64,000 nucleotides of DNA from a virus: positions 1 through 64,000 of IMG/VR virus record IMGVR_UViG_3300018080_008375; one strand, written 5' to 3'. Shown here piece by piece: positions 5,618 through 55,785 of this stretch. Made by a program: the position numbers and the translations under genes. How positions within the stretch are numbered: the stretch's first letter is position 1; each line of letters starts with the position of its first letter. Below the pieces are notes generated by a model, which was not told the DNA's origin, made no database searches, and saw only the letters and a program-made list of their open reading frames with translations.

Positions 5618-5740
5618 TCCAGGGTAGTTCAAGGGTAGAACGGGCGGCTGTGGGCATTTCTGCGGCTCAGATAATAGGGCAGGTCGGCACTGCCAATGCT
5701 ACTAACCGCCAAGTTGGGGGTTCGAGTCCTCCCCCTGGAG
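5618..5740 (+). tRNA. tRNA-Asn(GTT) with a 51-nt insertion in the anticodon
   Basis: Acceptor TCCAGGG/CCCTGGA with G73; GGCGG-CTGT[5652-5702]TAA-CCGCC; normal D and T arms. Confidence 0.85.
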
Positions 5741-12300: not shown

Positions 12301-12380
12301 ACCCCCGTAGTCGGTCTCGGCTACGGACCGAGCAGCCGTAATAGGAGCTGAAAATGCAGGTTCGAGTCCTGCCGGGGGTG
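12301..12380 (+). tRNA. D-armless tRNA-Arg(ACG) with an extra arm 3' of the anticodon
   Basis: Acceptor ACCCCCG/CGGGGGT; only 8 nt (TAGTCGGT) before CTCGG-CTACGGA-CCGAG; then CAGC-CGTAATAGGA-GCTG; T arm GCAGG-TTCGAGT-CCTGC. Confidence 0.75.
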
Positions 12381-18970: not shown

Positions 18971-19506
18971 TGACGGAAGATGATCTTTTCCGACCGGTGC
19001 GCAACTTCCCCGAGGAAGAGGAAAGAGTCGGAACGGGACCCATATGTTTCGGAGACGACTGGCCTGGGACTTTCATACGCGGTGATGAAAGCCATTCCTT
19101 CGCAAAGGTTCTGAAAGAAGTGATCTCGGTGCTTGAGGAGCGCACGGATACATGGTCCAAAGGGTCTTCTTTCGGATACTATGTGTGGTATTTGAGGTGG
19201 GCGATGGAGCTGCTGCTTAGGAGTCATTCTCAAGATCGTCTGGACAGGGCGCGCCTGATTGCGCGCGAAATGCGTAATATCGGACTTCCCAAGGAGTTCA
19301 AAAAGTTATCAGAGGACCTGACATATTCCGTCATGGACAAGGGGGATATAACGAACTCGCTTGAGGCCAGGATCTTACGCCTGAGCGTCGTTAGGAATCC
19401 TCATGAGAATTTTCAGCTTGAGCGCGACGACGATCTTCGCCTGCTACAGAGAATATGGGGTGTTGAGCCGCGCGAGGAAGAGTGGTACCAAATAAGTTCC
19501 GGATAG
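18970..19506 (+). CDS. hypothetical phage protein
   Basis: TGPICFGDDWPGTFIRGD motif. Confidence 0.7.
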   Translation: MTEDDLFRPVRNFPEEEERVGTGPICFGDDWPGTFIRGDESHSFAKVLKEVISVLEERTDTWSKGSSFGYYVWYLRWAMELLLRSHSQDRLDRARLIAREMRNIGLPKEFKKLSEDLTYSVMDKGDITNSLEARILRLSVVRNPHENFQLERDDDLRLLQRIWGVEPREEEWYQISSG

Positions 19507-19709
19507 GAGGCGTGATGCCAAGGAGCATGATATGCGGCGTGCGCGTGGACCATGTAGAAGTGAAGCTGCCGTGCTATCTCGTAGTTGACGAACATGGCTT
19601 CACTTCCGTTTACGACACGGAAGATGCCGTCGACCGAGCCGTCCAAGGATGTAACGAGGCGGAAGAAACCGTCAATGTGCTGTATTTGAGCGAGGAAGAA
19701 TAGAAGAAC

Positions 19710-19781
19710 GGGCCGTTAGTTCAGAGGGAGAACACTACCTCGACGCGGTAGGGGTCGCAGGTTCAAATCCTGCACGGCCCA
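19710..19781 (+). tRNA. tRNA-Val(GAC), C at position 33
   Basis: Acceptor GGGCCGT/ACGGCCC; anticodon arm CTACC-TCGACGC-GGTAG. Confidence 0.88.
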
Positions 19782-19784
19782 CGA

Positions 19785-19949
19785 TGCGGGGCGCGCGTTT
19801 GCGCGCCGCCGCAGCCTTCGGGCAAAATGCCGCCCTCCCGGAGGGCTCGCGCGCTGCCAGTGAGGTCGAACCGTGGTTTTTGAGCATTCGCATACCATGG
19901 ATCGTCACGACGGCGCGCTAGCAGGACCAAGCGGATGCTCGGGCGGCAA
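19785..19949 (+). ncRNA. candidate multi-branched ncRNA between tRNA-Val and tRNA-Ala
   Basis: Stems GGCGCGC/GCGCGCC, GCC-TTCG-GGC, TGCCGCCC/GGGCGGCA, GCGCGCTG/CGGCGCGC and CCGTGGT/ACCATGG. Confidence 0.6.
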
Positions 19950-19956
19950 TGATAAT

Positions 19957-20027
19957 GGGGCCGTGGTGAAACGGGATCACACGACTTTCGCACGGTCGAA
20001 TTGCGAGTTCGATTCTCGCCGGCTCCA
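19957..20027 (+). tRNA. tRNA-Ala(CGC)
   Basis: Acceptor GGGGCCG/CGGCTCC; anticodon arm CGACT-TTCGCAC-GGTCG. Confidence 0.9.
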
Positions 20028-20029
20028 CC

Positions 20030-20176
20030 TGGACCGTAGCCTAATGACGACTGCCGAACGTCAGTCGGGGCATACACCGGCTGCCTAGTAGCTGAGCGTC
20101 ACCTCCGGGGCACCGGGGGCTTGAGAGGGCGACTTCTCTACGAAGGAAGATGCGGGTGCGAATCCCGCCGGTCCAG
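20030..20176 (+). ncRNA. tRNA-like RNA with an ~80-nt structured insertion in the D loop; best anticodon reading ACG
   Basis: Acceptor TGGACCG/CGGTCCA with G73; TAGCCTAA...GGGC D stem; CTTCT-CTACGAA-GGAAG; T arm GCGGG-TGCGAAT-CCCGC. Confidence 0.65.
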
Positions 20177-20178
20177 CA

Positions 20179-20240
20179 GGTTCTTGTGACCGGGTAGGTC
20201 TAGGGCAAGCCCAAGCGGTTCGACTCCGCAGATGGAACCA
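20179..20240 (+). ncRNA. miniature tRNA-like RNA lacking an anticodon loop
   Basis: GGTTC/GAACC-A ends; GACC-GGGTA-GGTC; GGG-CAAG-CCC; GCGG-TTCGACT-CCGC. Confidence 0.55.
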
Positions 20241-20338
20241 GGCTTCGGCAGGCAAAGTCGACTTGACTGCCGAAGCCGCCTAATCTGCTCCTACAGGGGC
20301 TTTGTCCGGTACCGGGCACCCTCTGGGGCGGATTTTTT

Positions 20339-20412
20339 GGGGACGTAGTTCAGCTGGGATGAACGTTGCGCTGGCAGCGCAAAGGTCGCGGGTTCGAACC
20401 CCGCCGTCTCCA
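20339..20412 (+). tRNA. tRNA-Ala(GGC)
   Basis: Acceptor GGGGACG/CGTCTCC; anticodon arm TTGCG-CTGGCAG-CGCAA. Confidence 0.92.
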
Positions 20413-20413
20413 C

Positions 20414-20487
20414 GGTATCCCTGGTGTAGTGGTTCTGCACGCTAGGTTGTGGCCCTGGAGGTCTCGGTTCGATCCCGTGGGGATACC
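20414..20487 (+). tRNA. tRNA-His(GTG) with encoded G-1
   Basis: G-GTATCCC/GGGATAC-C; anticodon arm CTAGG-TTGTGGC-CCTGG. Confidence 0.88.
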
Positions 20488-20489
20488 CT

Positions 20490-20621
20490 AGGGCGGCAGA
20501 TCACCGTCCCTTGATCGTCGCTGGCTCTAGGATCGGCTACGGAGATGGGTGGTATCATGCCGATGGGCTTAGCTATAACTACCCTGTAATGGCAGCGGCA
20601 ACGGCCGCGAGCGTCGGTCAT
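20490..20621 (+). ncRNA. candidate structured ncRNA between tRNA-His and tRNA-Ser
   Basis: Stems AGGGCGG/CCGTCCCT, TGATCG/CGGTCA, GTCGCTG/CAGCGGC and ATCGGC/GCCGAT; possible GGGTGGT/ACTACCC pseudoknot. Confidence 0.45.
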
Positions 20622-20625
20622 AAAT

Positions 20626-20710
20626 GGAAGGGCAACCCGATGGGTGACGGGGCTTGTTTCGAAAATAAGTGACCTTAACCGGCTTGGGGGTTCGACTCCC
20701 CCTCCTTCCG
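20626..20710 (+). tRNA. tRNA-Ser(CGA)
   Basis: Acceptor GGAAGGG/TCCTTCC with G73; anticodon arm CTTGT-TTCGAAA-ATAAG; variable arm present. Confidence 0.85.
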
Positions 20711-20840
20711 CGGGCGGCTACAGCGCTGGTGGGACAGCGTGATGGGCGGTCGCAAGCGAGTAGTTCCCACCTATCGTTTGCGGCTTGCCTCGACTGGATC
20801 ATACCCGCCGAGGCACGCTTTTAATTTTCTGGAGGGCAGA

Positions 20841-21428
20841 ATGAGAGAAACCTGTAATCACAGCTATGGTCATAGATGTACCGTGAGGGATTGCGATGGT
20901 TTAGGACATTGGGGTTTTCAGAATCATTATTTCTGCCGCAAACACTATCAGAGGCTGCTTGGGTGCGAACTTCCGGACTGCCCGAGATGCGGCAATGCCG
21001 ATGGCGTACATTGCCGATCGAAAAGCGACGGCAAGTGGGAGTGCAAGCGCTGCGGGTTTAAGTTTCAGAAGCCAGACCTAAGGAGCATGAAAGAGGAAGA
21101 TTTGGAAGAATTTGCCGACTGCGACGAGGTCAAGGAAGTCATCTGGGACATGAGGGAGAAACGCGAAGCCATGATGCGTCGCATAGACGAAAACGGGCTT
21201 CTCAGCCTTACCATGAAAGACATGAAGCGCGGCACGAAGTTTGAGAGCGCGACGCTTAATGATATAGGCTGTAGCCACAAGCCGGGCCATGCCGCAAAGC
21301 ATGTCGTCCTGTTCGATGGCAACAGGATGAAGATCCTGAAGTCATCGGGGCTTCACAAGGAAGAGGATAAGCACGGATGCAGGCGCTGCCAAAGCCAGGA
21401 CGACTGGAAGTTCGGTCCGGGAGACTGA
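20841..21428 (+). CDS. Zn-finger hypothetical protein
   Basis: GGAGG RBS; CTVRDC...CRKHYQR and CPRC...CKRC. Confidence 0.65.
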   Translation: MRETCNHSYGHRCTVRDCDGLGHWGFQNHYFCRKHYQRLLGCELPDCPRCGNADGVHCRSKSDGKWECKRCGFKFQKPDLRSMKEEDLEEFADCDEVKEVIWDMREKREAMMRRIDENGLLSLTMKDMKRGTKFESATLNDIGCSHKPGHAAKHVVLFDGNRMKILKSSGLHKEEDKHGCRRCQSQDDWKFGPGD

Positions 21429-21432
21429 TAAG

Positions 21433-21714
21433 ATGCAGATCAGGAAGACCATAGATGTTCCAGCCACGACGAGAGAGGTTGTTGAGTTTACTGTCTGCGA
21501 CCTGTGCGGTCGCAAGGAGCCTGGCGACGGCTGGAGCAAATGCTACGATGTGGAGGATGTTGAGGTTTCGTACGAGAGTGGGAGTAGATATCCCGACGGG
21601 AATTTTACGGAGACCATTTCCTACGACATCTGTCCCGACTGTTTCAAAAACAAGCTGATGCCGTGGCTGGAGAGCCAGGGGGCGAAGCACAGGAAGAAGG
21701 ATAATATTTGGTAG
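21433..21714 (+). CDS. Zn-binding hypothetical phage protein
   Basis: CDLCG...DICPDCF. Confidence 0.7.
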   Translation: MQIRKTIDVPATTREVVEFTVCDLCGRKEPGDGWSKCYDVEDVEVSYESGSRYPDGNFTETISYDICPDCFKNKLMPWLESQGAKHRKKDNIW

Positions 21715-21722
21715 AGTGTTCA

Positions 21723-21800
21723 GGGGGCGCGGTCCAGTCAGGAGTGGACGCTGGCCTGTCAAGCCAGAGACCGCGGGTTCAAATCCCGCCGTCCCCGCCA
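21723..21800 (+). tRNA. tRNA-Asp(GTC), CCA encoded
   Basis: Acceptor GGGGGCG/CGTCCCC-GCCA; anticodon arm CTGGC-CTGTCAA-GCCAG. Confidence 0.92.
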
Positions 21801-22045
21801 GGGTGTTTGGCTCAGGGATCCATGAGCCAGGCATAAAACATGCGGATGGATACAGCAAGCAACTCCGGCCAGGTCTTAGCCGGAACTCTGCCGACAGATG
21901 CCTGCGGATATCCGGGGACCTGAGGATTCCATGGGTCGCAACGATTCTGCATGCCCTGCTCTGCGCGCCTGGGTCTATGCAGCCTATGAGGGTCTTTGGG
22001 GAGCATTTGCGTTTCTCGAAGTGATTCCTATGGCGCGCAGTGTTT

Positions 22046-34614: not shown

Positions 34615-34960
34615 GGGGGTGAATTTGGTTTCGACGTGTACGATTGCGGCATAGGCTGCAGGCAGGAGGGTCGCTGGGACCTCCCTAATCCAACAGCGAA
34701 AAGCAAACGCGAACGAACAGTTTGCAATGGCCGCATAGGCCCGCCGGAGATGCTGCCCAGCCTGTCGGCGGCTTCTCCGGTGCGATGATGGCGGGCTAGC
34801 TGACGGAGGATCGTAGCCTCTCCAGAAGCGAAGCAACAGGCTGCGGACATCCCGGACAGAACCTGCCGGTGGGTGCTGCCTGGATGTATAAAACATCGGA
34901 CAAGCCTGTAGACGCCATGCCAAGGCGTGTGCGGACGGGGTTTCGATACCCCCACCTCCA
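34615..34960 (+). ncRNA. ssrA: tmRNA
   Basis: 5' GGGGGTGAATTTGGTTTCGAC; 3' GACGGGGTTTCGATACCCCCACCTCCA; tag ORF (AN)ANEQFAMAA-TAG. Confidence 0.93.
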
Positions 34961-34972
34961 CAAGTGATTGAT

Positions 34973-55471: not shown

Positions 55472-55785
55472 TGGGCAAATCCTGGGCGGATGCCGCCATT
55501 GATAAACTGGCTGGCGGCGAATCGGCGGATATCAGGCCGCATGGTAATTCCATGAAGGGAAAGGTCGAGAGCGGGCAGCAGGTAACGGTATCCCCGTGCG
55601 ACGAGAGCGGGCTGGCTGCCGGCGACATGGTGCTCGTGCGCGTGAAGGGGCGCGTGTACCTTCATCTTGTCAAAGCCGTTCGCGAAGGCAAGGACGGAAA
55701 AAGGAGGTTTCAGATAGGCAACAATTGCGGTGGTATAAACGGCTGGGTTGGAGCCAAGGCGATCTACGGAAAAATGGAGGGATGA
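55471..55785 (+). CDS. S24/S26 peptidase-like protein
   Basis: GNSM...GD.VL...YLHLV...GNN.G.INGW...IYGK. Confidence 0.7.
   Translation: MGKSWADAAIDKLAGGESADIRPHGNSMKGKVESGQQVTVSPCDESGLAAGDMVLVRVKGRVYLHLVKAVREGKDGKRRFQIGNNCGGINGWVGAKAIYGKMEG

Follow-up and report, generated by a model that had tools for sequence, protein, structure and literature searches.

A tRNA-derived element with an enlarged D region in the tRNA island of a huge phage

The transfer RNA (tRNA) clusters of phages have long been known to hold tRNA-like RNAs, the classic examples being RNAC and RNAD of phage T4. Here, we describe a tRNA-like element of 147 nucleotides (nt), located at 20030-20176 on the + strand of a viral DNA deposited as IMG/VR record IMGVR_UViG_3300018080_008375. 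Coordinates refer to the window, which is the whole 64,000-nt stretch that was analysed and comprises the first 64 kb of the 99.8-kb record; element position p corresponds to window coordinate 20029+p. CheckV estimated a completeness of ~25%, so the record represents part of a huge phage genome of roughly 400 kb. Its GC content is ~55%, and its genes are strongly biased to the + strand. What is new is the element itself, as a variant of a known but unexplained class of phage tRNA-like RNAs.

T4 RNAC (species 1 RNA) and RNAD (species 2 RNA) are late, stable RNAs with no known function after 50 years (PMC3014915, PMC9697503). The T4 locus is arranged as tRNA-Arg, 1 nt, rnaD (119 nt), 6 nt, rnaC (139 nt). 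The rnaC gene ends in the T arm CCGGG-TTCGAAT-CCCGG and has an imperfect, acceptor-like 7-base-pair (bp) closure around a long interior. The likeness to our element is that these are small RNA genes of ~120-140 nt directly behind a tRNA. The T4 genes sit 1-6 nt behind a tRNA at the end of the tRNA cluster, and the element sits 0 nt behind tRNA-Ala(CGC). By its length (~120-150 nt), its place directly behind a tRNA and its acceptor-like helix with a T arm, the element is of the RNAC type, an assignment that denotes functional analogy and no curated family. We noticed no shared sequence between rnaC and the element, no formal homology test having been made. The two also differ in that the rnaC acceptor has five of seven pairs and no anticodon-type arm by the T arm, whereas the element has a perfect acceptor and an Arg-type loop. 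Moreover, rnaC is conserved in 740 phage records, whereas the element has no known relative.

Another relevant system is the jumbo phage XacN1, in which each 66-kb terminal repeat holds ~29 tRNA-like sequences, among them a pseudogene and two CUA calls that lack a target (PMC5852040). As in our case, it is a huge phage with ~30 tRNA genes over ~60 kb at one genome end, some of them non-canonical; the two phages are, however, unrelated by DnaE, for which the best matches among isolated phages are ~32% identical. With intron-bearing tRNA genes, the element shares the interruption of a tRNA-like gene by extra sequence. Bacterial group I introns sit in the anticodon loop of tRNAs, and archaeal bulge-helix-bulge introns can sit in the D loop. 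In contrast to the archaeal intron tRNAs, the element is found in a bacterial-type context, in which a transfer-messenger RNA (tmRNA) is present.

The tRNA shell of the element

ARAGORN called 31 tRNA genes and a tmRNA, all on the + strand between 3 and 56 kb, and Rfam called 24 tRNAs and the tmRNA in the window; neither placed anything at 20030-20176. The shell of the element consists of the following parts.

20030..20036, + strand: acceptor 5' strand UGGACCG; 7 of 7 pairs with 20169-20175, pair probability 0.7-1.0
20037..20042, + strand: U8 A9 and D-stem 5' strand GCCU (from the sequence)
20043..20126, + strand: extra sequence in the D-loop position, 84 nt (minimum free energy (MFE) fold, pair probabilities)
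20127..20130, + strand: GGGC, D-stem 3' strand in the cloverleaf reading (from the sequence; constrained fold only)
20133..20149, + strand: anticodon-type arm CUUCU-CUACGAA-GGAAG, with ACG at 20140-20142
20150..20151, + strand: variable region AU, 2 nt (from the sequence); too short for the ARAGORN tRNA model
20152..20168, + strand: T arm GCGGG-UGCGAAU-CCCGC, with G instead of U at position 55
20169..20176, + strand: acceptor 3' strand CGGUCCA and discriminator G73 (from the sequence and the closure scan)

The acceptor, the D-stem candidates, the T arm, the hairpins and both anticodon registers listed in the initial annotation of this DNA were all present in the sequence. The acceptor stem is formed by the pairs U1-A72, G2-C71, G3-C70, A4-U69, C5-G68, C6-G67 and G7-C66, and G73 (20176) is followed by CA. 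This acceptor type, U1-A72 with G73, is the one used by the phage for Gln and Asn. The shell has the 7-bp acceptor, the 5-bp T stem and the 7-nt T loop of the U-N-C-R-A type that are expected of a tRNA, and the anticodon arm has five stem pairs and a 7-nt loop in which position 33 is U and position 37 a purine. The loop CUACGAA equals that of canonical tRNA-Arg(ACG), as in E. coli tRNA-Arg2. The element resembles that tRNA also in the 5-bp anticodon stem, the 5-bp T stem, the 7-bp acceptor, U8, A14 and the purine discriminator.

The core of the element departs from a canonical tRNA. Where a tRNA has a D loop of 7-11 nt (8-11 nt in the comparison with tRNA-Arg2) with G18 G19 and a variable region of at least 4 nt, the element has an 84-nt D loop without G18 G19 and a 2-nt variable region. 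It also has 2 nt between the D stem and the anticodon stem, and G55. The core is short by 1-2 nt in every register, with 21 nt from the D stem to the T stem compared with 22-23 nt in a normal class I tRNA. RF00005 did not match the element at its gathering score (29 bits) or at E <= 10. ARAGORN made no call at the element with default settings, and its relaxed mode (-ps, with intron) returned a poor Ser(UGA) model.

To estimate how often such a shell arises by chance, both strands of the 99.8-kb record were scanned for 5-bp stems that carry a T[TG]CRANN loop and whose next 7 nt are fully paired with a 7-mer at most 260 nt upstream. The scan returned 29 matches on the + strand and 0 on the - strand, all of them tRNAs or tRNA look-alikes. 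Besides the ARAGORN tRNAs, the matches were 5618-5739, 12301-12379 and 20030-20175, and three others (21678, 23404 and 23439) were longer upstream closures of the T arms of called tRNAs. The T-arm motif alone occurred 33 times on the + strand and three times on the - strand. An anticodon-type stem-loop, defined as five pairs and a 7-nt loop with U33 and purine 37 that ends 2-6 nt before the T stem, was found in 71 of 20000 shuffled interiors and at 0.64% of genome positions. Perfect-stem CUACGRA arms occur only twice in the record, in the element and at 12316. Since the closure and T arm are strand-specific and, together with the anticodon arm, exceed chance, the element is, beyond reasonable doubt, a tRNA-derived RNA gene.

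The ACG register, with its 5-bp stem and CUACGAA loop, had been put forward in the initial annotation as the best anticodon arm, and our analysis supports this. An alternative, weak register, CUCUACG, centres CUA at 20138-20140. The frame that best fits the element is that of a tRNA-Arg(ACG) on a U1-A72/G73 acceptor of the Gln/Asn type. It was likewise correct that the window holds no canonical tRNA-Arg(ACG): the sole ARAGORN call with ACG is an odd 87-nt gene at 55776, and Rfam gave none. ACG is displayed in the 64-kb window by three non-canonical elements (12301, 20030 and 55776), whose scaffolds differ, being D-armless, D-loop-expanded and serine-type, respectively. Among the Arg codons of the record, AGG is the most used (29.8 per 1000) and is matched by a phage tRNA-Arg(CCU); CGC is the second (24.5 per 1000) and is without a canonical ACG tRNA.

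The 17-nt T arm of the element recurs identically in at least 119 stretches of viral contigs, which comprise canonical tRNAs (Tyr, Pro, Leu, Ala, Arg, Met and others) and ~55 tmRNAs. Therefore, G55 is no defect, and the T-arm word is not diagnostic. The T loop UGCGAAU was frequent in tmRNAs with ANDxxFALAA-type tags (viral contigs L002-L120) and was also seen in a tRNA-Tyr(GUA) that recurs on many viral contigs, probably at prophage attachment sites. We also observed three ARAGORN-negative tRNA-like units with a perfect 7-bp closure and the T arm GCGGG-UGCGAAU-CCCGC (L054:3844-3979, 136 nt; L103:5559-5656, 98 nt; L037:4577-4671, 95 nt). They lie on unrelated viral contigs and are not homologous, and the 136-nt unit shares nothing with the element beyond the T arm.

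The enlarged D region

The extra sequence in the D-loop region amounts to about 72-85 nt. The repeats, predicted hairpins and candidate insertion boundaries are given below.

20045-20049 / 20059-20063, + strand: TGACG/CGTCA (from the sequence)
20048-20067, + strand: hairpin CGACUG/CAGUCG (MFE fold, pair probabilities)
20049..20120, + strand: candidate inserted block, element positions 20-91 (gapped alignment to 12301-12380; excision leaves a 76-nt cloverleaf)
20077-20096, + strand: hairpin CCGGCUGC-CUA-GUAGCUG(A)G (MFE fold, pair probabilities)
20102-20108 / 20113-20119, + strand: CCTCCGG/CCGGGGG (from the sequence)
20102-20119, + strand: hairpin CCUCCGG-GGCA-CCGGGGG (MFE fold, pair probabilities)
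20123-20138, + strand: hairpin GAGAGG-GCGA-CUUCUC (MFE fold), of which only the start lies within the 84-nt insert

The initial annotation described this region as a structured insert of ~80 nt in the D loop. The extra sequence and the hairpins are indeed there, but the structure is no better than that of shuffled sequences: the interior (positions 8-122) folded at -43.2 kcal/mol, compared with -38.3 +/- 3.5 kcal/mol for dinucleotide shuffles (z = -1.41), and 50 of 500 shuffles were as stable. The interior hairpins exist, yet they are unremarkable, because a GC-rich sequence of this length readily forms hairpins. The whole element reached z = -2.2 to -2.3, owing to the acceptor stem and the T arm. 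We also noted, post hoc, that the interior at 20099-20106 holds UCACCUCC, identical to the core of the 3' tail of 16S ribosomal RNA (the anti-Shine-Dalgarno sequence), and that the CCUCCGG/CCGGGGG hairpin buries most of it.

The MFE of the element was -65.1 kcal/mol, and that of the cloverleaf with the ACG arm constrained was -60.2 kcal/mol, i.e., 4.9 kcal/mol higher. GCCU (20039-20042) pairs equally well with a nearer GGGC at 20068-20071, a pairing that the ensemble prefers (P about 0.97), and the pair probabilities of the cloverleaf D stem (with 20127-20130) and of the ACG arm were 0-0.01. The 5' strand of the ACG arm would be sequestered by the GAGAGG-GCGA-CUUCUC hairpin of the MFE fold. 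This predicted preference weakens the cloverleaf reading of the element.

We also ran ARAGORN on 1395 single-deletion variants of the element. A tRNA was called in 43 of them, and 35 D-region intervals gave calls in the CUA register. When the interior was shuffled, 86 of 200 sequences yielded at least one call and 13 of 200 as many calls as the element, at a call rate of ~0.8% per deletion variant. As 86 of 200 shuffles were also called, the deletion scan does not discriminate in favour of a tRNA plus one insert. Excision of positions 20-91 left 76 nt that ARAGORN called as a tRNA and for which the RNAfold MFE structure was a cloverleaf; the resulting D loop, AAUGACUUGAGA, lacks GG. On excised forms, ARAGORN always picked the CUCUACG register, because a 2-nt variable region is unacceptable to it.

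Possible nature of the element

We propose, with a probability of roughly 0.55, that the element is a co-transcribed, RNase P/Z-processed, non-decoding tRNA-like RNA that occupies a slot in the tRNA operon. The operon runs in the order tRNA-Ala, 0 nt, element, 2 nt, a mini tRNA-like unit, a structured spacer, tRNA-Ala, 1 nt, tRNA-His. The 3' end of tRNA-Ala(CGC) (A73 C C) abuts the element, and the 0-nt and 2-nt spacing equals the packing of other tandem tRNAs in the record. The coordinates of two canonical RNA genes are as follows.

19957..20029, + strand: canonical tRNA-Ala(CGC) (ARAGORN; Rfam tRNA, 57.3 bits)
34615-34961, + strand: canonical tmRNA (ARAGORN, Rfam)

Bacterial RNase P recognises the stacked acceptor/T-arm helix. 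The element would be co-transcribed with its neighbours, and RNase P would cut at U1, which would also free the 3' end of tRNA-Ala(CGC). Trimming of the 3' side after G73 would then give a stable 147-nt tRNA-like RNA. This RNA would be non-decoding, because of a D region ~10 times the normal size, a variable region of 2 nt and a predicted ground state in which the ACG arm is masked. It may be a relic that is kept as processing punctuation, or a look-alike of the T4 RNAC sort.

The insert may have come from a copy of the paralogous ACG element at 12301-12380 that landed in the D loop, as the alignment suggests. In a gapped local alignment, positions 20-91 were collinear with almost the whole of 12301-12380 (49 of 64 identical, 12 gap columns). 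The score had z = 4.45 against dinucleotide shuffles (0 of 400) and was an outlier among 34 tRNA and tRNA-like genes, the next z being 2.2. With the insert as the query, three scoring schemes all ranked 12301 first among the non-self loci of the record, though narrowly. Several results speak against this origin and, with it, against that part of our proposal. When 12301 was the query, two unrelated loci scored equally high in the genome-window null, and lenient gap scores extended the alignment into unrelated flanks. Searches with nhmmer between the insert and 12301 gave no similarity in either direction at E <= 100. The covariance model of 12301 matched only the 3' part of the element (14.3 bits, E 0.18), which leaves the paralogue unconfirmed. 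We treat a decayed paralogue copy as a lead only, and a somewhat doubtful one.

The 12301-12380 locus is a 79-nt tRNA-like gene with a perfect acceptor, a T arm and a CUCGG-CUACGGA-CCGAG arm, without a D arm; its second hairpin, CAGC-CGUAAUAGGA-GCUG, is followed by 5 nt. In a covariance-model alignment to tRNA-Glu, the second hairpin took the place of the anticodon arm and the ACG hairpin that of the D arm, so the geometry may be read the other way round. As for the outer frame of the element, the adjacent tRNA-Ala(CGC) was considered as a source on the basis of a suggestive local alignment, yet it was rejected, as split alignment over all tRNAs did not favour any one of them (Leu-CAA 41, Ala-GGC 41, Val-GAC 39, Ala-CGC 36). 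No single phage tRNA stood out as the parent.

The searches for homologues were negative. Neither megablast of 19000-22000 nor tblastn of the neighbouring open reading frame (ORF) matched any of 50,697 phage records, and the neighbour proteins had no relatives in IMG/VR. The adjacent 229-residue ORF had no relative in 5.8 billion proteins but itself, on two contigs, the longer of 254,806 bp. Relatives of the DnaE at 54-57% identity carried no tRNA and no match to the element. A gapped end-pattern had one chance match (L128) in JGI metagenome contigs, a pattern of the anticodon arm and T loop had eight chance matches in viral contigs, and two scans of GTDB genomes gave zero matches and one chance match.

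Several considerations count against the element being a processed, non-decoding RNA. No homologues were found that would show covariation or selection. Its co-transcription, processing and stability are all steps that we infer. Flawless acceptor, T and anticodon arms should be found, too, in a gene that was disrupted only recently and is otherwise functional, or in one from which a still-unknown mechanism removes the insert. Free-energy models ignore tertiary contacts and modifications, which makes the masked ACG arm weak evidence. Finally, the phage has a tRNA-Asn gene at 5618-5740 with a 51-nt insert that splits the loop, between anticodon positions 35 and 36, into CUGU and UAA. This gene is otherwise intact (U1-A72, G73 and good D, anticodon and T stems), which hints that a mechanism for the removal of inserts could exist.

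If the element were a true tRNA-Arg(ACG), its insert would be spliced out by a protein-dependent or undescribed route, or tolerated, and the mature tRNA would decode CGU, CGC and CGA. Such a role would agree with the canonical CUACGAA loop, with the intact acceptor, T arm and anticodon stem, with the 76-nt cloverleaf of the excised form, and with the demand for CGC decoding; the tRNA-Asn insert is a hint in the same direction. We consider it improbable. The initial annotation had suggested a D-loop intron, which our results do not support. The Rfam search of 19800-20400 at E <= 10 returned only chance-level matches at the element and no intron or ribozyme family; a group II fragment scored 10.8 bits, which is the chance level. 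A group I intron was rejected, since there was no match to the catalytic core, the D region rather than the anticodon loop is interrupted, and ~72-84 nt is too short. The two bulge-helix-bulge-like matches both overlapped the T arm/acceptor, and shuffles had a mean of 1.16 per sequence. Neither PF01974 nor PF01139 (tRNA-splicing endonuclease EndA and RtcB) was found in the 99.8-kb record, which is only ~25% of the genome. An archaeal-type bulge-helix-bulge intron was rejected as well, with neither the motif at the junctions nor the endonuclease/ligase genes in the record. The 51-nt insert of the tRNA-Asn has no group I or bulge-helix-bulge signature either, and it has no sequence similarity to the insert of the element. 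Moreover, the excised core lacks 1-2 nt, its variable region has 2 nt and its D loop no G18 G19, and ARAGORN takes the excised form in the CUA register only.

The initial annotation had also named a tRNA-fused functional RNA, and the element may conceivably be one. Phage tRNAs are known to act against tRNA-cutting defences. The element could, in this context, be a functional tRNA mimic, with a shell that serves processing and stability. Its ACG arm, its interior hairpins or both would then decoy or soak up a host factor directed at tRNA-Arg, for example an anticodon nuclease, TadA or ArgRS, and the element would be one of three odd ACG scaffolds (12301, 20030 and 55776). The presence of three non-canonical ACG elements in 64 kb without a canonical tRNA-Arg(ACG), the perfect outer helices around an interior that looks unconstrained, and the rank of CGC as the second most used Arg codon are all compatible with a mimic. 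We nevertheless regard it as unlikely: folding predicts a masked ACG arm, no nuclease, target or partner came to light, and the interior has no more structure than expected by chance. In a bolder form, the three-scaffold ACG RNA family would be decoys or resistant substitutes against a factor that attacks or needs tRNA-Arg(ACG), or else an undescribed protein-dependent splicing would remove the inserts of both the element and tRNA-Asn; that either of these holds seems improbable to us. An amber suppressor of the supE kind (tRNA-Gln CUA), which the initial annotation had mentioned, would combine the Gln-like acceptor with CUA in the canonically spaced register. The acceptor is indeed of the Gln/Asn type of the phage (U1-A72, G2-C71, G3-C70, G73), ARAGORN called CUA on 35 single-deletion variants and on the form without positions 20-91, and jumbo phage XacN1 has two CUA tRNAs with no known target (PMC5852040). 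The stem in this register, however, has three Watson-Crick pairs with G.A/A.G mismatches, position 37 is a pyrimidine (C37), and shuffled interiors gave ARAGORN calls as well (86 of 200). For the inner CUA (20085-20087), position 33 is C and folding predicts closure to a triloop. Moreover, TAG ends 39 of 120 likely genes (TGA 64, TAA 17), no gene looks TAG-interrupted, and nothing in this fragment suggests TAG recoding. The suppressor is, accordingly, very improbable. A small second tmRNA-like RNA is even harder to credit. In its favour, the frame that ends in UAG UAG (20086-20091) reads ...GHTPAA, like a degradation tag, with AA before the two stop codons, and many tmRNAs carry the identical T arm. 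The alanine identity element G3.U70 is, however, absent, the acceptor having G3-C70 (A3-U70 in a shifted register). There is no helix 2 or pseudoknot, Rfam gave no tmRNA match (14.2 bits with the permuted-tmRNA model, threshold 47), and a canonical tmRNA is already present at 34615-34961. A search of viral contigs with the tmRNA-tag pattern gave zero matches. We also rejected a Y RNA-like RNA (YrlA), as RF02553 scored 16.4 bits (threshold 69), largely from the tRNA-Ala that precedes the element, and no TROVE (Rsr/Ro) gene was found in the 99.8-kb record. Readings of the element as an attP core and on the minus strand were rejected too.

Neighbouring structures and significance

A mini tRNA-like unit of 62 nt (20179..20240, + strand) lies 2 nt downstream of the element. 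It has a GGUUC/GAACC closure, a D arm GACC-GGGUA-GGUC and a 4-bp T arm with a UUCGACU loop, and a stub, GGG-CAAG-CCC, replaces the anticodon arm; its fold has a z of only -1.18. The spacer that follows (20241-20338), before tRNA-Ala(GGC), was highly structured: at z = -6.15, none of 500 shuffles matched its stability. It forms a perfect 11-bp hairpin, GGCUUCGGCAG...CUGCCGAAGCC, with a U run at the end, and was not flagged by a simple terminator scan. The 174-nt spacer between tRNA-Val and tRNA-Ala(CGC) (19783-19956) also folded better than shuffles (z = -2.81).

Standard tRNA finders miss genes such as the one described here. Here, ~80 nt of foreign or duplicated sequence sits inside a perfectly closed tRNA shell that a huge phage keeps in one slot of an operon, and the element is one of several aberrant tRNA genes within the same 64 kb. 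Its weight would rise if the aberrant tRNA genes of this phage shared one mechanism. If the element is only a relic, it documents the growth and decay of tRNA islands in huge phages and cautions that loci of this kind should not be tallied as tRNAs or suppressors. Should the shell be under selection, the element would be a tractable case for distinguishing between processing punctuation, a decoy in tRNA conflicts and a substrate of unknown splicing.

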